Source: Mustelus asterias
Taxonomy: Eukaryota
Assembly: GCF_964213995.1 (NCBI RefSeq)
Contig: NC_135818.1
Location: 76,694,001 to 76,758,000, forward strand
Direction of reading: 5' to 3'
DNA length: 64,000 bases
The notes beneath the pieces were generated by a model. That model saw only the letters and a list, made by a program, of their open reading frames with translations. It ran no database searches and had not been told where the DNA came from. How positions within the stretch are numbered: position 1 is the first letter of the stretch; every line of letters begins with the position of its first letter. Of this stretch, positions 1-58,065 are shown in pieces. The translations under genes were made by a program, and so were the position numbers.

Positions 1-394
1 TGGACCCACCCCCTGGGCATCTGCAGACCAGCCCCGACTGCAAGTTGCTAATGTGCCACGTTCAATGCATGTGAAAAGAAAGGGACTGCTGGGTACCAGC
101 AATTCAGTAAAGCCTGACTCAGAATGTGGGACACAAGGTCGAATTGCAGGGCTGTCCCGGAAAATCTGTGACAGTGAGTCACCCTGAGCTAGGTAGTGTG
201 TGGTTTGGTGGTGACTGTCTCCAGGAAATAGGGAAGGAGTGACGGCTACTGTTGCAGGTGATTTGTGGCTAAATCCATTAAGTGAGAGATCCAACACAGT
301 GAAGTTGGTAAGACAGTAAAATTGCACGTAGACCACATTTAAGCGAGGAGCAATGTGAATGCACCTCATCTTGTGAGCTAGTCTTTGTTGTTAT

Positions 395-589
395 AGTCCA
401 AAGATGTGCAGGTTAGGTTGATTGGCCATGCTAAAAATTGCCCTTAGCGTCCTGAGATGCGTAGGTTAGAGGGATTAGTGCGTAAATACGTAGGGATATG
501 GGGGTCGGGCCTGGGTGGGATTGTGGTCGGTGCAGACTCGATGGGCCAAATGGCCTCTTTCTGTACTGTAGGGTTTCTATGATTCTATG
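395..589 (+). mobile_element. HE1-type V-SINE, 5'-truncated, CR1-like tail
   Basis: gtccaaagatgtgcaggttaggttgattggccatgctaaa ... gggccaaatggcctctttctgtactgtagggtttctatg, as in the full copies in this window. Confidence 0.85.
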
Positions 590-665
590 TATCTGCTGTT
601 GCATGTGTAATTTATAATTTGTATGAACCATAATGTATCTGTTAATTCATGTTTGGCTTATGTTA

Positions 666-963
666 AGTTTTAAAGTTTATTTATTGTTGTCACAAGTGGG
701 CTTACATTAACACTGCAAAGAGGTTACTGTGAAAATCCCCCAGTCACCACACTCTGACACCTGTTCAGGTACACTGAGGGAGAATTTAACATGGCCAATG
801 CACCTAACCAGCACATCTTTTCAGACTGGGAGGAAACTGGAGCACCCACGCAGACACGGGGAGAACGTGCAGACTCCGCACAGACAGTGACCCAAGCCAG
901 GAATCAAACCGAGGTCCCTGGCGCTGTGAGGCAGCAATGCTAACTACTATGCCATCGTGCCGC
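666..963 (-). mobile_element. V-SINE with alternative (type B) tail
   Basis: Reverse complement of tRNA head + V-domain + tail ...cagtgttaatgtaagcccacttgtgacaacaataaataaacttta. Confidence 0.85.
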
Positions 964-1414
964 ACTAATCCTGATTCATGTTAAAGTAAAAACTCCAAAA
1001 TGTGAAACCTTCTTGTTAATTTCTTCATTTGGTGGTTATTTGGTAAATTTTAGTTATTTTTGGTTTGCAGTTCCTCCACGGGAACCATCACACGTGTGAC
1101 TGTGCAGTGTTGCCATACTATAGATGTAAACAGCTTCTTCATGTGTGTTTCTGAACCAGTTTTTGAATCTTCGGAACTCACTTCCTCAAAAGCCAGTGGA
1201 AAGAGGTTGGGGGGTGGTTTGTGGAGAAAGGGTTATCAGAGGGTGGGTGGTCGGCAGGCAGGAGGTTACACTAAGATCAGCCATTAGCCTTTAAATGGCG
1301 AAACAGGCCTGAAGGGCTATTTTGCTAAACAAAATGGCTGGTGGCATCAGTTATACTCGGGTGAGTTTTAGAAAATCCGAATTACTTAAGCTGCATGGTG
1401 GTTCTCTCTTCCAG

Positions 1415-1578
1415 CCACCAAGCCAGCCTTCAAGTGGAGTCCTTGCAGGAGCAACTTCAAACCATCGCAAAACAGCGAGATGAGGCGATGATGCAGTTGA
1501 ATGTGTCTCAGGAACAAGTGAAGCAATATGCAATGTCACTGACAAACCTGCAGATGGTGATAGAGCAATTTCAACAGG
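1415..1578 (+). CDS. TRIP11: TRIP11/GMAP-210 coding exon (probably equivalent to human exon 14), coiled coil: (S)[54 protein letters not shown]
   Basis: Pyrimidine tract plus CAG acceptor (AG 1413-1414); donor G|GTAAGC at 1578/1579; 164 nt. The peptide closely resembles the recalled human TRIP11 sequence [15 protein letters not shown]...QMVLEHFQQ. Confidence 0.95.
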
Positions 1579-2879
1579 GTAAGCAAATATCGAAAGTGAC
1601 TCTATATTTTTTGGGATGGATCTAGCCAGGCAGAAGTTTAACTAAGAAGTTATACTTGATTACTTCCCAGCTTTCCTTTCCACTTTCCCATTTAATGATT
1701 TTAAGATCATCTCACACAACAGACACTCTTCTGTTCAAACGAGTAAGACTGAAGTGCAAGTTGTCTGTTGTACACTTAAATCTGACACTAGGGGGCAGAG
1801 GCGGTATGTACGGAGCGATTCTCCAGTCTTCCCACGTCCTCAAATTAAATAATCCTAACTGAGCATCTCCCATGATGACCTCGCCATAATATGGAATTGC
1901 TGTGCCAGAGATGCAGATGTGACCCTGTTTCGTAGCATCCCCATGGCTTGGAGTGCATTGGTACACTCTTTTAAACCAAAGATAGCTTACCAGCATATAC
2001 GGAATAATCTGTAAACAAATGCCTTATTAATCCCTTCAGTGATGTAACCGGTGTTCAAAGTCCACTGACAGTATTCAGTCCTTATACTGTCGTCTTGATA
2101 ACGGGCATGAATGGTAAAATCATAAAGACTAACCGTGGAGCCAGAGTTGAAAAGCATTTGTTTCTGGCCATTGTTTCTGGAGACTAAAACGTTTTCCAGG
2201 AAGAAATACATTTTGATGATATTTCCGAATGTAGACTATACAGCCAAGATCGAGCTCAGTAGTTGGAATGGGTTGCTGAGAAGAACAGTTGAAGCCAGAA
2301 CACGAGACTCCTTTAAGCCACAGCTCGATGTGGTAACAGGAAAAACAGATTTGGCACTTTGGAAGTGTAAGATCAAATAACCTGAAGAGAGCCTCCTTCA
2401 GCCCAAACTATTGCAATGAACTGCATGATTCATATGCTGCATGTATATGGAGTTGTAAGAGAAACTGGAAGAGGGCAAGTGATCATAGGGAAGCAAAATA
2501 CCTGCAAATCATCAACTTACCTCAAAATAACAATGTCTGGTGATGAATTATATGGAATTGACAGCTATGGCATAAAACTACTAGTTGACACTAAATAAAT
2601 ATATCGACTTGATACTTGTTTTTATTGGAATGCTCTTATTGGAATGTAGCATTTCAGAATACTCTGATGTTTTAATGGAGTATGAATTGAAAATGATCAA
2701 GCACCATTGCATGAGTAGGCTGTGTCACTTCAGCTTGTCACACTTTACTCCTCACTGCAGGCTTCATCCAACACCTTTCTCTCCCTCCCTAATTTGGTGC
2801 CAGGTCATTGTCATTGGGACGTCCCCGTCCCCCCTGCCCCATTTCTTCCCCTCTCTCTCTCTCTCTCTCCCCCCCCCCC

Positions 2880-3150
2880 CCCCCCCAATCCCCGTAACCC
2901 CACGCATTTATCCCACTAACCCCCCCCCCATCCCCGTAACCCCACGCATTTATCCCACTAACCTACACATCCTGGGACACTAAGGGGCAATTTAGCTAAC
3001 CTGCACATCTTTGGATTGTGGGAGGAAACCCACGCAGATACAGGGAGAATGTGCAGACTCTGCACAGACAGTGACCTAAGGCTGGAATTGAACCTGGGTC
3101 CCTGGCGCTATGAGGCAGCAGTGCTAGTTATTGTGCCACTGTGCCGCACC
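2880..3150 (-). mobile_element. HE1-type V-SINE with an internal ~41-bp tandem duplication next to a CT/C tract
   Basis: cccgtaaccccacgcatttatcccactaac occurs twice (about 2890 and 2932); V-domain and head are on the minus strand. Confidence 0.8.
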
Positions 3151-4547
3151 ACCACAACCCCCCCCCCCCCCGCCCCAAAGATGTTGAGTGGAATGGGTAA
3201 ATAGCAAGACTAAGTGCATAAAATCTAAAAAGTGCAAGTATAGATTGCTCAAACCATTTAAAACAAAAAAGAAAGCAAAGGATGACAAATTTATACAAAT
3301 CCTTGCTTAGGGCATACTTCTATATTGTAAAACGGGCATTAAACTAGTAGAGAAGACGACTACTGACTAGGGAGAAAAAGCAGTGAATGCTGAAGCTCAG
3401 CAAGTTAACATTTGCTATGTATAAAAAGAGATGATAGAATAAACTTTTTCTAAAGAGGGTTTTAGGAGTAGATATTGGCACAGCAAGTAGTTTGAGGCAG
3501 AAACATTGGGTATCTTGTAAGACAAAATTAGATGACTATATTAAGTGTGGGGGGAATAAAGGACTGTTGAGTGGGGGTATGAGAGTGAAATTTGTTTTGG
3601 ATTGCTCAGAACAAAGGTTTGGTACCGATTGAGTGCTGAATGATGTCCATCTCTGCTGTAAGCCTTTATTGAGCCTGTTACAGCCAGTACACTTTACACT
3701 GAGAATCACTGCAAACAGAAACCTCACTGGCTTTCTTCCCCCCCATTTGCTTTACCCTCCATCACTAATTTATGGGATATTGAGGAAAATGCAGCACATC
3801 CACAAACTCCCTGATTGTGATCAGATAACTTAAACTAAAATTTGAATTTTTGATGTTTAATGCTTATAGTCGATCAGGCAGAAGTCAGGCTGCATCTCGT
3901 GCTGCATTTATGTGTTGTAACTTTTACAGCTCATTTAACTTATCTATTTACATAAAGTCATAGGCAATGTTCCCCCACAGTGTATGATTCACTGTGCAAT
4001 TGCTTTTTATTTGTCTGCTGCACCCTGTGTTACTGATTACTAAATCCTTTACATCTATAATTGTCTATTTTATTACTAATCATTGAATGCAAACAGGAAC
4101 CTTTTGGTAACCAGTAGTATACACATATTGTAAATGCTTGTATTTATTGTTAACTTGTATTTGTTAAATTAATATTTAATTAAATGTCCGATAGATCCAA
4201 GGTGAAAAGCCAACTTTTAAAAATTCCATCCAAGCCTATTTCTGCTGCTGAATTTGTGCTCAGTTCCCCAATATGTCTTTCCATCCTCATCATTTTCGCA
4301 ACTGTCTAATATCCTTGTTTCTTAGCACTGTTGATAAAATACAGTGGCTGAATTTTCCGGTCTCGTGCACTCCACCACCGTTGCCAGCGGGACTGTAGAA
4401 TCCCCGCTGTGGGCAAGGTTGGAGATTTCCAACCATTGTCTTTATTAAATAGCCCATTTGCCCCTCAAGGTTATTTTTAAATGATCCTTCATTATTTAAT
4501 GGGTTTCCGTTATGATTTTTTTCTCGCTGCCTGCTATAACGGCTATG

Positions 4548-4956: not shown

Positions 4957-5552
4957 GCAGTAGCATGGTGGTCTTGTTACTCATAATCCAGAAACATGAG
5001 AACAAAGAAAATTACAGCACAGGAAGAGGCTCTTCGGCCCTCAAAGCCAGCACCGATCATGCTGCCCGACTGAACTAAAATCCCCTACCCTTTTGGGGAC
5101 CATAATCACTCTATTCCCATCCTATTCATGTATTTGTCCAGACACCCCTTGAAGTCACGAAGTGAGTTCAAATCCTACCACAGCAGTTGGGAATTTAAAT
5201 TTAGTTAATTAATTAAATCTGTAATAAAATCAGTAATGGAGACCATCAAGTACTCGGTTGTCATAAAAACCTAGCTGGTTCGTTAATATCCATGATAGGG
5301 AGAAGTAAACCTATCATTCTTACCTGGTCTGGCCTGTAGATGACTCCAGATCCTACAATAACCTGGTTTACTCTTAGCTGTCTTCTGAGATGTTCTTACA
5401 AGCTAGTCAGTTGTATTAAAAAGCTGAAATGGAAAGCTTTGAGCCACGTGAACATCAGTGGTTGCACATCCTGCTTCCCGAATGGCTAGCTTGAATGGAC
5501 AATCAGTTTTGGCCCTCCCAGCAACCCCCACTTTGTGTGAATGAGTTTTTAA
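4957..5552 (+). mobile_element. Old tRNA-headed bipartite SINE interrupted by an antisense CR1 3' fragment (about 4998-5162)
   Basis: Diverged match to 54877-55200 (ctggttcgttaat...cttacctggtctggcc...tcagttgtat) and to the LINE 3' end at 42240-42330. Confidence 0.6.
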
Positions 5553-10235: not shown

Positions 10236-11619
10236 CTGAACTGAAGGGACTTAGTGTAACCTTTCATGTATGCAAATGTGTAAAAGCTTCAGCTACATTT
10301 GACTGCCATTGGAAAGCTAGATTGGTGTTATAAGTGATGTGGATTTGGTTTTGGATTGCTGGAAACAATCTGCTATGCTGCAAGGAACTGGAATGTTTTC
10401 AAATATTTTGAGGAGTTTTAATTATAAGCATGTCTTTCCTGATTCAGTGCATAATTTTGAATGAAGTTAAGGATCCATCATAGAAGTCACTATTTTTTGG
10501 TCTTTTGGATTACCTCTCTGCACCAAAATTTGGGTATTTTCTTTACCTGTGATCTGCAATGGGTTTGCATTAAGAGTCGATCTTCACTGGAGCGGGTGAT
10601 GCAACAGCAATATGACAGTTCAAACCCATGCTGCAGCAGAGGCAAAAGCTTTCCACATACAAGCTGCAAATCACTTTCTGGTATATGAATGAGGATGGAG
10701 GTAAGCACCATTTAAAGGATGAAGGGGAAGATAGTGGAACAAAACATGGTAAAATGCATTTATGATTGAGAAATTTACATGTGTTCCTAAAATAGGAAAA
10801 GCTGGTTTTGACCAGCCCCAGTTGTTTTGCTGTTTAATACAGTATTTTTCAGTACAGAAGTAGGTGAGCCAGCAAAGCTGACTTCAAGATTGCAGCAAAT
10901 TCTCCACACTGAAATGATCCAAAGCTAAGTTAAAATGTATGGATACTTCAAGGGAATGGTACAATCCAACTAGTTTTGTAATTTTGTAGAAACCAGCAAT
11001 GTCTTGATCACATTAATGTCAAACAGGTCAATGGCATTTGTCCACATCTTTGAACATGATTGAATACATATAGCTTCACTTCATCAGTGATAAATGTAGA
11101 TGTTTTGTGTGTTGAGGCACTCTGTTTGCCAGCGATGTTTCCTGCATAACTTCATTCTTTCTTTCTACTTAATGTATTGGCTTATGTTCTGACCTTGATT
11201 ACTCAGTGGTAAAGTATTTGTTGAAACACAAACAGTTGACTAGCCAAAGAAAAGCTGAGTGGGTTGGGGGGAGTCAGGAAGGAGAGGAAAATATCGATTG
11301 AGAGTCAAAGCCAAGCTGAATATGGAGCTCAGAATGGAGCTGCTTGTCTTATTTAATTTGTATTGAACTGAGCCAGTCTAGTAAACTAAACCGTATCAAA
11401 TATACTCCAAATAATATGGTATTTCTCCCTTACCCCTTGCTGTTTACGGTTGACATGCATTTTGGTTTTCAGCACAAGTGAGAACTTTTCTATATTTTTC
11501 TCAGTATCTTACCTAACGTATATTCATTAATATTGCTGAAGCTTTGCATGCATTGTTTTTTTTTGGTTACTCAGACCAGCAAGTTCCTGTGGTTTATTTT
11601 TCTATTTTGGGGCACCAGT

Positions 11620-12430
11620 TTTTTACTTTAAGGGTTGTGGGCATTGCTGGTGAGGCCAGCATTTGTTATTGAGCCTTAATTACCCTTGAGAAGATAGTGG
11701 TGGGCTGCTTAAAAAAGTACCTGGATCTTCACCTTAAGTGCTGTAAGTTGCAGGGCTTTGGGCCATCTGCAGGAGGATGGGATTAGAAAGGGCACTTGGG
11801 TGTCTTTGGGTCGGCATGGACAAGATGGGCCAAATGGTCCCCTTCTATGCTGTATCATTTCTGTGGTTCTATGCCGCCTTGAATCACTGTCGTCCAGTTG
11901 GTGGAGGTTCAGTCTCAGTTCTCTAGAGGGAATTCCAGGATGTCTACCTAGCAATGGTGAAGGAATGATGATTTTGTCCTAATTCGGCATGGCCAGTGAC
12001 TTGAAGGGGAAGTTGCAAGCAGTGATGTTCCCATGGGTCTCCTGTCCTAGGTGGTGGAGATCACAGGTTTGGAAGTTGTTGTCAAATGAAGCTTGGTAAG
12101 TTGCTGCAGTGCACCTTGTAGACGGTGTGGGAAGCGCACTCATCCATGCAAGAGGCGACTATTCCATTACACTCTTTATGCCTTGGAGATGGTGGACAGG
12201 CTTTGGGAAGTCCTTTAGGGAAGAAAATCTGCCGTCCATACCTGGTCTGACCTACATATGACTCCAGAGCTGTAGCAATGTTGTTGACTCTCAACTGCCC
12301 TCTGAAATGGCCTAGCAAGCCATTCAGTTCAAGGGTGACTCGGGATGGGCAATAAATGCTGGCCAGGAGTTGAGTTTATCGCCACAGAATACCCAGCCTT
12401 TGACTTGTCTGAGCCACAGTATTTGTAACT
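11620..12430 (-). mobile_element. CR1-group LINE 3' remnant with a nested CR1 3' fragment (11709-11872, +) and a bipartite SINE fragment (12207-12365, +)
   Basis: The host matches the reverse complement of 42030-42330 and resumes after each insert. Confidence 0.7.
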
Positions 12431-13369: not shown

Positions 13370-14075
13370 TTACCTATCGCTCTTGAACATTGGTTCCAAG
13401 TCCCATATGTCTCGATTTGAACTTTCTCCTCCCACTGTTAAAACCCCAGAGGGCATTCCTCTGACTCTGGCCTTGTGCATATTTATTCTTTGCCCACCAT
13501 TGGCAACCCTGTCTTCAGTTCCAGAATCCCTTCCTAAATCTCTCCACCTTGCTGTTCTCCTTTAGGACCATTGTTTAAACCGGTGGTATGGTGGCACAGT
13601 GGTTAGCACTGCTGCTTCACAGCTCCAGGGACCTGGGTTCGATTCCCGGTTTGGGTCACTCTCTGTGTGGAGTTTGCACATTCTCCCCGTGTGTGTGTGG
13701 GTTTCCTCCGGGTGCTCTGGTTTCCTCCCACAGTCCAAAGATGTGCGAGTTAGGTTGATTGGCTATGCTAAAATTGCCCTTAGTGTCCTGGGATGCGTAG
13801 GTTAGAAGAATTAGTGGGTAAATATGTAGGGATATGGGGATAGGGCCTGGGTGGGATTGTGGTCGGTGCAGACTCGATGGGCCGAATGGCGCCTCTCTGT
13901 GCTGTAGGATTTCTAAGATTTCTAAGAAACCACTTCTGACTACACATTGTCACTGCTCCCGATTTCCCTTCCTTAAACTCGGTGTTCTTTTTTTGTCGAA
14001 TTATGTTGCTGTGATGAGCCTCAGGATGTTTTTCTATGTTAAAGGTGCTATATGTGTACAAATTAATATTGTTAA
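13370..14075 (+). mobile_element. L2-like LINE 3' remnant interrupted by a HE1 SINE
   Basis: Ends gtgatgagcctcaggatgtttttctatgttaaaggtgctatat, an L2-type tail; a related antisense copy lies at about 33998-34310. Confidence 0.6.
13582..13926 (+). mobile_element. Full-length HE1-type V-SINE
   Basis: A/B boxes, V-domain, CR1-like tail; flanked by the direct repeat AAACC (13577-13581 and 13927-13931). Confidence 0.9.
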
Positions 14076-41300: not shown

Positions 41301-42029
41301 GCAAATGATCTTTATTTGGTCCTCTTTGAAGTTGGTCTCCAGGCAATCATTAGTGACTCCTCAGAGATAACAAGGTTGAGTTTTCCTGAAGCTGCAAAGT
41401 GGCTTCTTTTGTTCTGGGATCACAGATAGATATTAGGTTCGCTATTTTAAGGATCATGTTCAGCCAAAGTCCTGTTGTAAAACTTAGAAATAACATTGAA
41501 TATATAGATAGGGGTGTGGCGTGAGCGGATAACCCCATCCGGGGTTGCAAAATCCAAATCCCTGGATGATAGACACCAAGCACTGACAAACAGCTGCCTC
41601 CGGTTCTGCTCTCTAGACGGTGGTAGCCCTGCCCTGCTCCATCCTGATGGTTCCATTAACAGAGGCATGTGCTTTAACCCCAGGCCCATGGCCACACACC
41701 CTGTGCCAGTTTCCTTCCTTCAGAAGTGCTGAATCCCCTGCCGGCTGACACCGCACTCAGCCCAACTGAGAGAAACAGGCAGGGGAGCAAGCAGCGATGC
41801 CCGTGAACTCAATGGGCAGTTCAGTGATTCCACCACCCCTCCCCCATGCGTGGGTTTCCTGGCAGCAGAGACAGCTCACCATTGGCCACTGGCTGGATCC
41901 CGCCAAAGTCAATGGCCAATTGTATTGCTCGCTGGCCACACCACCAGGGAGCCTGCTACGGGAGGTCACCTTGGATGGGACCGGGAGATCCATCATGTGG
42001 GAAAGGTTGGAAAATTCCTTAAGCAACAC

Positions 42030-42330
42030 CTTCCAAACACAACAGCTACCAACTAGAAGGACAAGGACAGCAGATACATGGGAACGCCACCACCTGTAAG
42101 TTCCCCTCCAAGCCACTCACCATCCAGACTTGGAAATATATCACTGTTACTTCATTGTCTCTGGTCAAAATCCTGGAATTCCCTCACAGCACTGTAGGTG
42201 TGCCTATATCGTATGGACTGCAGCAGTTCAAGAAGGAAGCTCACCACCACCTTTTCAAGGGCAATTAAGGATGGGCAATAAATGCTGGCCTAAGTACTGA
42301 CACCAACCTCCCATAAATGAATTTTTAAAA
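42030..42330 (+). mobile_element. CR1-group LINE 3' end (tail donor of the bipartite SINEs)
   Basis: Peptide-like ...SKSWNSL...GLQQFKKEAHHHLFKGN; tail aagggcaattaaggatgggcaataaatgctggcc. Confidence 0.7.
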
Positions 42331-44199
42331 ATAGTGTATAGTGGTAAATGGGCGTGGAAGTACCATTTGACGGGTGAGTGGCAGCATACCTTTGCAAAGG
42401 GGCATCAGGTCATTTGGGGATAGGAGGGGCCAATGGGGTTTGTTGGGATTGGGGAGGGGGGGGTGGTAGCTCGCCTTAGAATGGGAGGGGCATGAGGAGA
42501 ACCTTTTGAACTTGATTTCCCTCATGCAGACCATGGCTTATGACATTGCCGAGGTACCGTGAACCTTAACTCTTAACAGCTGCCCTGTCACCATGATAAT
42601 CACAGAGACCTCGGACATGTCCATCCCTGCAACAGGGCAGGAATGATGGAGTAGTCTGGTTACCTGAATCGGCCCAAGTCCTTAAAAGGTACCCGGAAAA
42701 ATTGGAAACATCAGGAATGGTGGTCAGGAACCTGGAATTGGGACCTACCTTATTCTCAAAGGGTTCCTAAGTCACCCTGAAGCGACAGAAATCCAGCTCG
42801 ATATCTCCATTGTGGCGCTGGGGTTAGCAGAAGCTCAGTGGGCCGAATGGCATTGCTCTGCTTTGGAATTTCTATGCTCCTTCTTCAAAAGAAAACCCAT
42901 AATATTCCATCAAGAACATTGGCCAAGAAACTGTAACCAGCTCCCCTTAGCAGCAAGCAATTCTCACTGGACGGCAGTCCTGGGACCATAACCCCTGTGA
43001 CCAGTTGTTTTTATGGGAGCCAGATAATCCACCAGCTGTGTTACCCAAAAGAGCTTTAGGCACAGCTTCCAAAACCATGAAGCAATCTTTTTGCTCAACA
43101 CTGTCAAAAGCAGCAACTTCCAGCAGCTCTTGCACCTAATCAGTAGCATCAGCCTTCAAACCAAATCAGGATGAATGGACACCCAGGTCCAAGCACAATT
43201 TTGACACAAGGCCTTAGCTCTTAGCGCACGCTTCATTTTCCAGTCAGTCCCATGGTACAGAAACTCCAATCCAAGCATGCTACGTCTGTGCCTTTAATTC
43301 TATTTTAATTTGAAACTTCATGTTAAGGCTATGCTTTGCAATATCTGCTCTTAAGAGTGTTGCAGGGGATGAACACACTGTTACCATTAAGTTAATAAGA
43401 GTATACCAGTGTGTACTGTAGTTAATGCACAATAAGGTGTTTTGTGTATTATTGCAAAGCGTGTAAAATACTTAATGTACGGAAAAAGATCCTTATCTGG
43501 CCATGACTCTGAATTTCCTGGCAAGTCAGTTTTTGGATTAACAGGCTCCAACTGGATAAATTGTTGCATTGAGACACTGTCTAAGGCGTCATTGCCTGAA
43601 ATTGGCTGCCTATCAGTTCCCACATTGTGTTAAAATCAAATGTTACTGACTTTTCCTATTCTGACAAATTTCATCTGGCATTGCTAATACAGCTGAGAGA
43701 GTCTTGCGGCTGTGAATGCCAAGATTGATTCTCATGTAGTATGTATAAGAAAGAAAGCACTTACATTTATATAGTGCCTATCATGACCTGGGAATATCCC
43801 AAAGCACTCGACACTCTTTGAAGTGTAGTCGCTGTTGTCGTGACACAGCAGCCAATAGATGCACAGCAGGGCTGAAATTTGTTGGGGCACTTGGCTCCTA
43901 TAGGCCAGGGACGAGCCTACCTCAGCCCTTTCAGAAAGCCCTGATTTTATTCGTTCGATGTGAGCGTCGCTGGCTGGGCCAGCATTTATTGCCCATCCCT
44001 AACTACCCTCCATTCCAGAGGGCATTTGAGAATCGATTGCGGCACAGTGGTTAGCACTGACCCAAGCTGGGAATTGAACCTGGGTCCCTGGCGCTGAGGC
44101 GCAGCAGCGCTAACCACTGGCCCACCGTGGCACCACAGGTGGAGGTGGAGGAGAGAGTTCATGCTCTGAAGTTGTTGAACTCAATCTTCAGTCTGGATT

Positions 44200-49254: not shown

Positions 49255-50330
49255 TTTCTTTTGTAGTCAGTCCCTCAGGAACAAGGATGACCTGCTTGCC
49301 CTCCGGTTCCATGGGTTCTGGGATGGCCGCAAAGTCCAATACATGATCTGCAGACTCTGCCAGCTGTGGGGCAGATTGTGCTTGAAGGCTTGAGTAGATG
49401 AGGTGTTTGGAGGTTTGTGCACGCCCTCCGATGCCTTCGCTTTGCCTCTGCATGTTTACAACAACATCTCCTGGTGTATTTGGTGCCTTAATGGCTGAAC
49501 CTTCTCCATTTTGGTCGAGCCATGAGCCATGAGTCCATGTCCTCTTCAGAGATTGAGGACATCCCGAGACCATCCCCGCTCTCCTCCTGGGAGTCTCCCA
49601 CTGTGACTGAGTAGAGCAGTTGTTTCAGCAGTCTGGTGTCATGTCCCACCCAGCGGGGCTGGGTTTCAGAATCACTGTCTCAACGTTAGGTATATTGGGC
49701 TTGGGCGAGAATGCTACCTTTCTCGTCATTAGATTTGGAGGATCTTGTGAAGGTGCAAGACTTGCAATACTTCTCCAGTGCCTGCTGTAGGTTGTCCAAA
49801 GTATGTAGGAGTGTGGGGATCACTGTTGCCTGGTAAAACATGACCTTAGTTTTAAAAACTTTATTCATGGGATTTGAGGATTACTGGCTGGGCCAGTGTT
49901 TATTACCCATCATGAATTGCCATTGAATTCAATGGCTTGCTAGACTATTTAAGAGTCTGTGGATCTGGAGGCCAGACCATGTCAGATTTCCTTTCTTCTT
50001 GAATCAGCTGAGATTTTATGACAATCATGGCTAGATTTTTAATTCCAGATATTTGTATTGAGTTCAAATTTCACCAGCTGCCTTGGAGGGATTTGAACTC
50101 GGGTCCCTGGAACATTATCCTGGGTCTCTAGGTTATTAGTCCAGTGACAATACCACTACGCCACCACCTCCCTTAAGTCTTGATTTTGTCATCCTGGTCT
50201 CTATTACTCAATACTTACTGGTTATATTGCACTGATACCGGCTCCATTCTCCCAGCAGAATCCGAACCACAGGAATGTTGGCTCCAACACACATCTTTGA
50301 TGTCCAAACGAGGACTAAAGAGAAACTTTC
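49255..50330 (-). mobile_element. RTE-clade (BovB-like) LINE 3' remnant interrupted by a tRNA-headed SINE
   Basis: KTKVMFYQATVIPTLL and the C-terminal TICPTAGRVCRSCIGLCGHPRTH motif on the minus strand. Confidence 0.7.
49855..50172 (-). mobile_element. Full-length tRNA-headed bipartite SINE
   Basis: Minus strand: gggaggtggtggcgtagtgg...gagttcaaatccc...gcaagccattgaattcaatggcaattcatgatgggtaataaacactggcc. Confidence 0.75.
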
Positions 50331-54132: not shown

Positions 54133-54465
54133 CAATTTATTTTATTCATTCAAGAAATATAGGCTTTGCTGGCTAGGCCAGTATTTATTGCCCATCTCTA
54201 ATTGCCCTTGAGGAGCTAGATTCACAATTAGTGAATCAAAAAATTATTTCCATATAAATTACTCCTGACACAAAATCAGGCTATAACTCTCATTTCTTGT
54301 ATACTTCAGCAGAAGACCTTAAATTTTTGAAATTGTTATTTAAAATTTTTAATCGGTTTGATATATTTTGGGCATTGGGCTTGACATTTTTCGAATAATA
54401 AAATTATTTCCGTAGATTGGCTTTTAATTTGCAAGAAAAAAATCAAATATTGTAATAAAAATGTC

Positions 54466-54876: not shown

Positions 54877-55530
54877 GGGGGGAGGTGATGGCCTAGTGGT
54901 ATTATCGCTAGACTATTAATCCAGAAACTCAGCTAATATTCTGGGGACCTGGGTTCGAATCCCACCACGGCAGATGGTGGAATTTGAATTCAATAAAAAA
55001 TAATCTGGGATTAAAAGTCTGTGATGAGCATGGGACCATTGTTGATTGTCGGAAAAACCCATCTGGTTCACTAATGTCTTTTATCGAAGGAAATCTGCCA
55101 TTCTTACCTGGTCTGGCCGACATGTGACACCAGAGCCACAGCAATGTGGTTGACTCTCAACTGCCCTTGAAATGGCCTAGCAAGCCACTCAGTTGTATCA
55201 ATCACTACGATGTCAATAAAAAGGAATGAAACCGCACAGACCACCTTGCATCGACCTAGGTACCGGAAAAGACAGCGGCAAAACAAACAGCCCCGTCAAC
55301 CCGGCAAAGTCCTCCTTACTAACATCTGGGGGCTAGTGCCAAAATTGGGAGAGCTATCTCACAGACTAGTCCAGCAACAGCCTGACAGTCATTTTCATGG
55401 AATCATACCTTACAGATAACACTCCATTGTCAACCCTGGATATGACCTGTCCCACTGGCAGGAGAGGCCCAGCAGAGGTGGCGGTGCAGTGGTTGACAGT
55501 CAGGAGAGAGTTGCCCTTGGAATCCGCAAT
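54877..55530 (+). mobile_element. 5' end of a tRNA-headed LINE: Pol III A/B boxes, 5'UTR and APE endonuclease N-terminus (frameshifted)
   Basis: A box TGGCCTAGTGG 54889-54899, B box GGTTCGAATCC 54952-54962; peptides LLTNIWGLVPKLGELSHRLVQQQPD / VIFMESYL / PGYDLSHWQERPSRGGGAVV. Confidence 0.75.
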
Positions 55531-56065: not shown

Positions 56066-58065
56066 ATCATGAACAGATGAATTAGGAGCCGGAGTAGGCC
56101 ATTCAGCCCCTCAAGCTTGCTCGCACGATGGCACAGTGGTTAGCGCTGCTGCCTCACAGCACCAGGGACTCCGGGTCAGTTCCAGCCTTGGGTCACTATT
56201 TGTGCGGAGTCTGCACGTTCTCCCCGTGTCTGCGTGGGTTTCCTCCAGGTGCTCCGGTTTCCTCTCATACTCTGAAAGACGTGCTGGTTAGGTGCATCGG
56301 CCATGCTAAATTCTCTCTCGGTGTACCTGCACAGGCGGCAGAGTGTGGCGACTCGGGGATTTTCACAGTAACTTCATTTCATTGTAATATAAGCCGACTT
56401 GTGACACTAATAAACTTTAAACTCATGGCTGAACTGATTGTGGCCTCTACTTTCCTATCTACCTCCTCCCCCCCCCATCTACCTTTGACTTCTTTGTCAA
56501 TCAAGAGTCTATCTAACTCAGCCTTAGAAATATTCAATGACCCTGCCTCCACTGCTTTTGATTTGATTTATTATTGTCACATATATTAACATACAGTGAA
56601 AAGTATTGTTTCTTGCACGCTATACAGGCAAAACATACCGTTCATAGAGAAGGAAACGAGAGAGTGCAGAATGTAGTGTTACAGTCATAGCTAGGGTGTA
56701 GAAAAAGATCAACTTAATGCAAGGTAAGTCCATTCAAAAGTCTGACAGCAGCAGGGAAGAAGCTGTTCTTGAGTCGGTTGGTACGTGACCTCAGACTTTT
56801 GTATCTTTTTCCCAAAGGAAGAAGGTGGAAGAGAAAATGTCTGGGGTGCGTGGGGTCCTTAATTATGCTGGCTGCTTTGCCGAGGCAGCGGGAAGTCAAT
56901 GGACAGAGTCAATGGATGGGAGGCTGGTTTGCGTGATGGATTGGGCTATATTCACTACCTTTTGTAGTTCCTTGTGGTCTTGGGCAGAGCAGGAACCATA
57001 GCAAGCTGTGATACAACCAGAAAGAATGCTTTCTATGGTGCATCTGTAAAAGTTGGTGAGAGTTGTAGCTGACATGCCAAATTTCCTTAGTCTTCTGAGA
57101 AAGTAGAGGCGTTGGTGGGCTTTCTTAACTATAGTGTCGGCATGGGAAGACCAGGACAGGTTGTTGGTGATCTGGACACCTAAAACCTTGAAGCTCTCGA
57201 CCCTTTCTACTTCGTCCCTGTTGATGTAGACAGGTGTATGTTCTCCTTTACGCTTCCTGAAGTCGATGACAATCTCCTTCATTTTGTTGACATTGAGGGA
57301 GAGATTATTGTTGCCACACCAGTTCACCAGATTCTCTATCTTATTCCTGTACTCTGTCTCATCATTGTTTGAGATCCGACCCACTATGATGGTGTCGTCA
57401 GCAAACTTGAAAATCGAATTGGAGGGGAATTTGGCCGCACAGTCATAGGTGTGTAAGGAGTATAGTAGGGGGCTGAGAACACAGCCCCGTGGGGCACTGA
57501 TGTTGAGGATGATTGTGGAGGAGGTGTTGTTGCCTATCCTCACTGATTATGGTCTGTGAGTTAGGAAGTTCAGGATCCAGTTGCAGAGGGAGGTGCCGAG
57601 GCCCAGGCCACAGAGTTTGGAGATGAGTTTCGTGGGAATAATAGTGTTGAAGGCTGAGCTGTAGTCAATAAATAGGAGTCTGACATAGGTGTCCTTGTTA
57701 TATAGGTGTTTCAGGGTTGAGTGCAGGGCCAGGAGGAAACCCACGCATTTGCTGTGGACCTGTTGCGGTGGTAGGCAAGCTGTAGTGGATCCAGTTAGTC
57801 CGGGAGGCTGGAATTGTTTCGCGCCATGACTAACCTTTCGAAGCACTTCATAATGATGTCCACTTCTGCAGAAGAGAATTCCACAAACCAACGACTCCCT
57901 TATAGACCAGAAAATTCCCCTCATTTACGTCTTAAATAGGAGACCACATATTTAAAACTAAGTCCTCAGGTTCTAGTCTCTCCCACAAGGGGAAACATCC
58001 ATCAGCACCTACCCTGTCAAGTCCCCTCAGGATGTCTCAATAAGATCACCTCGTATTCTTCTAAT
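56066..58065 (-). mobile_element. CR1 3' remnant hosting a V-SINE (56122-56420, +, type B tail) and a Rex1/Babar LINE
   Basis: The host pieces 56066-56121, 56421-56556 and 57859-58065 are colinear. Confidence 0.75.
56557..57858 (-). mobile_element. Rex1/Babar-like LINE, 5'-truncated RT region
   Basis: [49 protein letters not shown]; frameshifts and stops; approximate TSD tccactgct / tccacttct. Confidence 0.92.

Follow-up and report, generated by a model that had tools for sequence, protein, structure and literature searches.

INTRODUCTION

The lepidopteran Persaeus SIDEs consist of both ends of a single-ORF Zenon LINE of about 3.3 kb and have several independent origins, and the loss of ORF1 and the existence of derivatives retaining both ends were thereby already known for Zenon (Wang et al. 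2019, PMC6740152). In bivalves, SINEs borrow only the tails of Zenon (PMC11481361, PMC10294476). The combination of a tRNA head, a LINE 5' UTR, and a LINE 3' tail has been described in the bipartite SINEs of RTE and Vingi, where the head was added to a deleted, nonautonomous LINE (Kojima 2018, PMC5786205). Retroelements other than SINEs that carry a small-RNA-derived Pol III promoter are represented by TRIMp3 (Cassandra, Helenus, and Ajax), which are short, noncoding, nonautonomous elements of the LTR type, and whose autonomous partners, it has been argued, must use Pol II (Kojima 2024, PMC10886601). Abundant tRNA-headed SINEs are known from chondrichthyans as SacSINE1 and CmiSINE (Luchetti et al. 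2017, PMC5499810). Zenon itself was reported from five elasmobranchs, the coelacanth, and hagfish, always lacking ORF1 and ending in poly-A (Stuart et al. 2026, PMC13343379).

Under the standard division, LINEs are coding Pol II transcripts and SINEs are short noncoding Pol III transcripts. The family described here, represented in a 64,000-nucleotide stretch of shark DNA (the window), bears sequence signatures of a break with that division, namely, a terminal tRNA promoter, a coding strand purged of T-runs, and no AUG. Unlike the RTE and Vingi SINEs, it carries the head on an autonomous CR1-Zenon element (PMC5786205), and it shares none of the short, noncoding, LTR-type, and nonautonomous character of TRIMp3 (PMC10886601). 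Neither tRNA homology nor a Pol III promoter is found in Persaeus (PMC6740152), whereas the short shark elements have a head with both boxes; because the parent shark LINE is itself tRNA headed, its deletion product is a SINE. Compared by description only, SacSINE1 and CmiSINE have a Deu- or CORE-domain and an L2-2_CM tail, whereas the shark SINE has the Zenon leader and tail (PMC5499810). Short body and tail motifs of the shark SINE were not found in the searchable supplements of PMC7245038, PMC4824008, and PMC5786205. Our literature search, which did not extend to Repbase, Dfam, or SINEBase, found no account of such a head on Zenon or of a Pol III-transcribed coding LINE, and no paper uniting elasmobranch Zenon, SINEs, and tRNA. 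The Zenon family is catalogued, and the head-on-LINE property is apparently unreported.

RESULTS AND DISCUSSION

Structure of the window copy and of the full-length element

The window copy, at positions 54879 to 55525 (+), is a decayed, 3'-truncated LINE that retains the 5' 660 nt of about 3.3 kb. It is 88.8% identical to positions 1 to 660 of a full-length majority sequence and ends, at 55525, at element position 660 of ~3,290. The 5' terminus of the element is a tRNA-derived head of the Ser/Leu long-variable-arm type (54879 to 54978, +), in which the Pol III A box TGGCCTAGTGG (54889 to 54899, +) and B box GGTTCGAATCC (54952 to 54962, +) are both exact, as the preliminary description of this locus had held. 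The head is followed by a conserved leader, or body, of ~215 nt (54979 to 55194, +), which is intact in all full SINEs and whose 3' end at 55194 is the main SINE deletion breakpoint. A basic N-terminal extension in the endonuclease frame then occupies 55204 to 55317 (+), starting at a codon that is GCT in the family and ACT in the window copy, and it is overlapped by a 36-codon upstream ORF (uORF) opening at a conserved out-of-frame ATG (55226 to 55228, +) that is shared by the published consensus starts (PMC13343379). In the window copy, a private substitution has created an in-frame ATG close to where the extension begins (55210 to 55212, +); the 11 other aligned copies lack it. The N-terminal part of the APE endonuclease runs from TNIWGL onward (55318 to 55525, +) and is frameshifted in the window copy. 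The APE motifs earlier said to follow the head were located: TNIWGL lies at 55318 to 55335, 439 nt downstream of the element start at 54879, and the later motifs are present, but they are out of register through private deletions of 2 nt and 10 nt.

The majority was derived from 15 uninterrupted full-length copies among 29 tail-bearing ones, with a mean divergence of 5.2%. It is 3,291 nt long and contains one long frame (positions 294 to 3230) with two TGA interruptions and no ORF1. The view that there is no room for ORF1 was thus upheld, since the majority has a single APE plus RT frame and the uORFs upstream are of at most 36 codons. The reverse transcriptase gave an RVT_1 match with an E value of 8.5e-37, and the Pfam Exo_endo_phos match, obtained with a fragment of copy L022, was weak (E value of 0.017) and below the cutoff. 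None of 39 copies was intact, the longest stop-free stretch being 482 codons. Most of the 29 tail-bearing copies finish with GAATGAAT followed by an A-run. AATAAA occurs at element positions 114 (just past the head), 3242, and 3284 (both in the tail) and nowhere in the ORF. These data confirm that the family represented at 54879 to 55525 is an ORF1-less LINE of ~3.3 kb composed of a tRNA-like head, a leader, a single frame for endonuclease plus RT, and a tail rich in A.

The head-ORF junction is a family trait

The host genome was searched with positions 54877 to 55530, the best 40 of 8,709 candidates were scored, and 8 kb was fetched around the 39 copies other than the query. These 39, drawn from the best 40 of 8,709, match the query at 85 to 87% over almost its full length. 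In 39/39 the head is the start of the copy and is joined to the same APE frame, the upstream flanks differ in the aligned copies, and the sequence common to the copies is ~3.25 kb long. A tail of the type seen at 42030 to 42330 ends 29 of the 39, and the other 10 stop earlier without a visible alternative shared end. No obvious target-site duplications were seen by eye in 29 flank pairs.

Since the first query contained the head, the search was repeated with ORF DNA alone, and 30 loci were kept, one of which was the query and five of which (query included) recurred from the first set. Twenty-one of the 30 extend to element positions 1 to 10, and 9 begin at positions 105 to 431, with upstream flanks that resemble neither one another nor the head. 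An alternative 5' end was not seen in any of these 30 loci, and older copies, at 70 to 80% identity, likewise have the head and the ORF. The head-ORF junction is therefore a trait of the family. Both proposals made beforehand, that the head would be contiguous with the APE frame beyond this locus and that the full-length consensus would end in the 42030 to 42330 tail, agree with these counts. A chance insertion of a SINE next to a LINE fragment at the window locus only would suit the fragmentary state of the window copy and the SINE density of the window, but the same colinear junction recurs in the 39/39 and 21/30 independent copies, contigs of other organisms span the leader-ORF joint (and also contain the SINE joint), and the junction is present in published consensus sequences of five species (PMC13343379). 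Such a chance juxtaposition is extremely improbable and was rejected.

Two independent copies, L063 and L076, are both 5' truncated at leader position 189, and in L076 an inverted piece of the 3' end lies immediately upstream of the truncation.

Identification as elasmobranch Zenon

The published rows comprise CarCar, HypSab, RhiTyp, and ScyCan Zenon-1 and SquAca Zenon-1 to -3 (PMC13343379). By eye, the first 400 nt of all seven match the head, leader, and ORF start of the shark element, and an exact 12-mer search of the same 400 nt matched 6/7 (PMC13343379). The likeness extends to the length (3,244 to 3,314 nt in the full consensus rows), the absence of ORF1, and the poly-A tail (PMC13343379). 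Based on the matching consensus starts, we identify the element as elasmobranch Zenon, which is already catalogued and for which lacking ORF1 is normal. In the first 400 nt of two hagfish rows and the coelacanth row there is no head and T-runs are present, the start of the coelacanth row being in low-confidence lower case (PMC13343379). The A box motif is found by eye in the seven elasmobranch consensus starts, with one letter group missing in some, and the B box is kept in most (PMC13343379). The head is likely to be older than the shark-ray split. The text passages of PMC13343379 contain nothing on a Zenon head, T-run depletion, a missing AUG, or derived SINEs, and the term "tRNA" occurs 0 times in its main text and searchable supplement; the count is also 0 in the preprint on the whale shark in which CR1-Zenon-like LINEs were first noted.

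Protein relatives are mostly of 930 to 1,000 aa at 33 to 40% identity, on contigs of 3 to 4.5 kb; they include a lepidopteran element. An RT tree of 32 rows, which included no named Zenon reference, placed the shark element with the lepidopteran (Chilo) element and unnamed homologues of single-ORF size (support 81/90) and apart from the bird and same-genome CR1; the loci of the same-genome control families used below were too short for this tree.

The tRNA-derived head

ARAGORN called no tRNA gene in the window and Rfam recognized no tRNA in a full copy, so the head is regarded as tRNA derived and not as a tRNA gene; a functional tRNA gene was rejected because neither program recognized a full cloverleaf. 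When compared with 47 unique host tRNA calls of 17 types, a partial tRNA set, the head gave its best matches with tRNAs having a long variable arm, Ser(GCT) (z = 7.8) and Leu(TAG) (z = 6.8), whereas Thr, Lys, Pro, and Val stayed at or below z = 4.9. Its first source may have been a tRNA or an older SINE. The top-scoring host call, an "Ile," is itself a related SINE head.

In invertebrate relatives, nhmmer found no significant match to the head or leader in 80 metagenomic loci (best E value of 0.091), and ARAGORN made no call in the 49 of the 80 loci scanned. This null result is a weak one, since the 5' end may be missing from many contigs and the shark head itself escapes ARAGORN.

The 95-nt "tRNA-Ile(aat)" called by ARAGORN at loci L200 to L259 is a related head of this SINE/LINE group; heads of this kind may raise the tRNA totals of shark genomes. 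The genome (G000) also has large tandem tRNA gene arrays, repeating every ~1.1 to 1.8 kb, at 97.2 to 98.6 Mb of C16 and 57.6 to 57.7 Mb of C13.

SINEs formed by internal deletion of the LINE

Short elements built from the two ends of Zenon are present in the window. The one at 49855 to 50172 (-), of an older subfamily, aligned as the head, a body with internal deletions, and the tail, and its junction is the one previously described. The element at 12210 to 12366 (+), which had been given as starting at 12207, has the expected body, junction, and tail (positions 198 to 317 joined to 3220 to 3257), but it is 5' truncated at position 198 and, contrary to the preliminary description, is headless. 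At 4957 to 5415 (+) there is an old head and body copy with an unrelated insertion inside its head, matching positions 75 to 320 at 71% in its 5166 to 5415 part; here the head and body were recovered, but no alignment joined its 3' part with the tail, so that the earlier statement of its retaining more of both ends found no support on the 3' side. The sequence at 42256 to 42320, taken from the outset to be the LINE 3' tail, belongs to a separate insertion at 42011 to 42322 (+), an older Zenon 3' end with the ORF end, 3' UTR, and A-rich tail that aligned to positions 2969 to 3286 at 81.5%.

The SINE is noncoding, is ~390 nt long, and comprises positions 1 to 317 and 3220 to the end, that is, a tRNA-related head with A and B boxes and a LINE-derived 3' tail. 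A search with the junction of the 12207 copy returned 40 matches, of which 30 loci were kept, and in 30/30 of these, which were selected for the structure by construction, the 5' part to position 317 is joined to the last ~75 nt. Exact 17-mers were then counted, giving 5,172 for the main junction, 1,412 for the LINE-type continuation, and 0 for the reversed controls. Among the first 30 loci with the main-junction pattern, 27 were scored as 317-3220 by script and the other three by eye. The first 30 loci with the LINE-type pattern consisted of 16 that continue into the ORF (66 to 95% identity), 11 that jump to the tail, and 3 that were unclassed. The seven clean junctions among the 11 were 323-3186, 324-3193, 323-3206, 319-3193 (three times), 337-3220, 319-3217, and 332-3207, and two loci have 51 to 59 unassigned bases at the junction; as any locus with this pattern has a 5' part extending at least to 319, breakpoints before 319 fall outside this sample. 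The SINEs are therefore internal deletions with at least eight different junctions, indicating that internal deletion happened repeatedly. The original suggestion that internal deletion made SINEs sharing both termini is supported as to the joining of the two ends, but this occurred many times, not once.

In a tree of 111 5' regions without support values, the young SINEs among the rows listed were mixed with young LINEs, and the old SINEs among them lay among old LINEs. A head variant found in 9/69 LINEs was present in 23/40 SINEs, and a variant found in 36 LINEs was present in 0 SINEs. The main junction was found with both old and young heads and also in other organisms, consistent with either one old deletion that exchanges heads or repeated use of the same site. 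As the promoter and the tail are at opposite ends of the LINE, any deletion in the middle would yield a complete tRNA-headed SINE in one step. If the proposal developed below proves right, the family would provide a path leading in a single step from LINE to SINE and would be a self-mobilizing SINE-LINE hybrid. It also serves as a present-day illustration of the idea that LINE 5' ends gave rise to SINE bodies.

Several other pieces of the family were observed in the window. An older Zenon 3' fragment at 11619 to 12212 (-), covering positions ~2738 to 3289 at 68 to 79%, hosts the 12210 to 12366 SINE in the opposite orientation; a decayed, shrunken SINE-like copy lies at 43946 to 44088 (-), and a lone decayed 3' tail lies at 54136 to 54215 (-), 660 nt upstream of the 54879 copy; the preliminary description had included neither of these two pieces. 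Another tRNA-headed SINE family, which we take to resemble the shark V-SINE HE1, is represented at 56125 to 56420 (+), and similar heads were seen near 13628, 19373, 32904, 59160, and 60807.

Depletion of T-runs on the sense strand

Transcription of the whole element by Pol III requires a sense strand without oligo-T terminators, the vertebrate Pol III terminator being four or more T. In the 3,291-nt majority, there are 0 runs of four or more T (T4+) against 4.5 expected (P = 0.013) and 5 runs of three or more (T3+) against 22.1 expected, a count reached in 0/2,000 shuffles; runs of A, C, and G occur about as often as expected. Single copies contain 0 to 2 T4+ runs and 11 to 18 A4+ runs. Most of the copies retrieved with an old copy as the query were young (76 to 80%), and the T-run counts are those of the young-copy majority. 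In the ORF, the 3 T3+ runs compare with 12.2 ± 2.7 when synonymous codons are permuted (0/2,000) and with 17.9 ± 3.1 under a third-position null, and the absence of T4+ is marginal under these codon-aware nulls (P = 0.095 and 0.045). The strong depletion signal thus lies at T3, which is shorter than the vertebrate terminator, and the absence of T4 is by itself marginal.

The depletion is visible at codon junctions, where T follows NTT in 0/47 cases (P = 0.0009) and precedes TTN in 1/29 (P = 0.009). Leu, Ile, and Val codons end in T in 0/26 cases before a T-starting codon and in 45/175 elsewhere (Fisher P = 0.0016). Phenylalanine makes up 1.84% of the protein, compared with 4.40 ± 1.16% in 110 homologues, the lowest of which has 2.19%. 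TT dinucleotides are somewhat low (103 versus 137), and C-ending codons are generally favored (TAT:TAC of 3:14).

Two LINE families of the same genome, with majorities built alike but short (1.3 and 1.1 kb) and with names assigned from RT translations, served as controls: the Rex1-like family has 15 T3+ runs against 14.5 expected and the CR1 family 16 against 14.2, with 6 and 5 T4+ runs, respectively. The Rex1-like control family is represented in the window by a young LINE fragment at 56560 to 57500 (-), with copies 94 to 95% alike, and one Zenon copy (L032) is inserted at the end of this family. All 80 of the 80 metagenomic relatives have at least two T4+ runs in the longest ORF, and most have T3+ counts at or above expectation; one relative, L128 (251 codons), is poor in T3 (5 versus 14.6 expected) yet has 4 T4 runs. 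Taking the A/B-box head of tRNA origin together with the near absence of sense-strand T-runs, we favor Pol III transcription of elasmobranch Zenon as the more plausible reading.

Translation start and leader

Pol III RNA has no m7G cap. Elasmobranch Zenon has no family-wide in-frame ATG before the endonuclease, and the first in-frame Met of the majority, residue 182, is past the endonuclease start. The basic extension comprises 38 codons ahead of TNIWGL and begins at the GCT, 8 nt past the last hairpin. The distance from GCT to TNI is 114 nt in 18/23 scorable copies and 113 nt in 5/23. By eye, the segment from GCT to the out-of-frame ATG measures 22, 22, 22, 19, and 22 nt here and in four published consensus sequences, keeping the endonuclease frame, whereas ahead of GCT the spacing is either 8 or 9 nt, a difference of one base; SquAca_Zenon-1 is an exception to the GCT frame, and in the remaining two SquAca rows this region is garbled (PMC13343379). 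The frame being kept from GCT onward while the upstream spacing varies, a start at or near GCT is suggested. Homologues have a similar basic extension, as in MATKKNAK of P0005 compared with IATKSQQR of the shark element, and the latter is likely to be translated without an AUG.

The leader, or body, is nearly alike in old and young copies and in the shark and ray consensus sequences (PMC13343379). Its folding is no better than that of shuffled sequences (z of -0.4 to -0.8). No Rfam IRES or ribozyme match was obtained at E values of ≤10 in copy L044, and a known IRES or self-cleaving ribozyme family was accordingly set aside. Covariation is uninformative because the sample has 7 older copies and few sites distinguish the old majority from the young one.

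Proposed transcription and translation of elasmobranch Zenon

From these features, elasmobranch Zenon is probably transcribed by Pol III from end to end, beginning at the head, and its protein is predicted to be made without a cap or an AUG. TFIIIC and Pol III would start at the head, and, as with Alu-type SINEs, transcription would continue past the A-rich tail until it meets a T-run in the flank. Selection would have purged the ORF of oligo-T terminators even where this meant losing phenylalanine, the conserved leader would recruit ribosomes to a start near the GCT codon, and the protein would copy its RNA by target-primed reverse transcription via the 3' tail. The full proposal, that an autonomous LINE has been transcribed by Pol III over 3.3 kb since before the shark-ray split, giving an uncapped RNA with a structured leader and a non-AUG start at GCT (Ala), is put forward tentatively and with less than even confidence; if true, it would represent a natural 3.3-kb Pol III messenger and a candidate compact cap-independent leader.

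The length of 3.3 kb counts against the Pol III reading, as it is far beyond the range of SINEs, which are 100 to 700 bp, a limit ascribed to weak Pol III processivity (PMC10886601). LINEs are generally Pol II transcripts (PMC10886601, PMC5786205), and Zenon might likewise be transcribed by Pol II, from its leader or by host read-through, with the head as a SINE passenger acquired by template switching and refreshed by recombination with SINEs, which are far more numerous. The interleaving of young SINE and LINE heads and the occurrence of the main junction with old and young heads do suggest exchange, which could also be what keeps the A and B boxes conserved, and a tRNA-like stretch in RTE-1_DAn was noted without a Pol III claim (PMC5786205). 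A passenger head, however, leaves unexplained a depletion that is T specific, strand specific, and evident at codon junctions over a 2.9-kb ORF and that is absent from two LINE families of the same nucleus and from invertebrate relatives. The scarcity of T-runs would then need another cause, such as avoidance of U-rich processing signals or of RT slippage. In addition, the AATAAA at position 114 would be awkward in a Pol II unit, and no copy with another 5' end was found among the 30 loci of the ORF search. Pol II transcription with a passenger head is accordingly considered an unlikely, though serious, competitor.

Pol III transcription might instead be combined with a conventional AUG, either through a -1 frameshift or reinitiation after the out-of-frame ATG at position 349 or through an AUG in occasional capped Pol II read-through transcripts. 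Nearly all aligned copies have the ATG at position 349, as do six of the seven published consensus starts, and in SquAca_Zenon-1 it is, by eye, in frame with the GCT codon (PMC13343379). However, the preservation of the endonuclease frame between GCT and this ATG, next to a variable spacing before GCT (PMC13343379), and the similar basic extension of the homologues count against an AUG start, and inspection by eye revealed no canonical slippery heptamer. We therefore consider an AUG start rather doubtful and prefer initiation near GCT. The loop of the last hairpin could possibly pair with the GCTA start region, and this candidate pairing is invariant.
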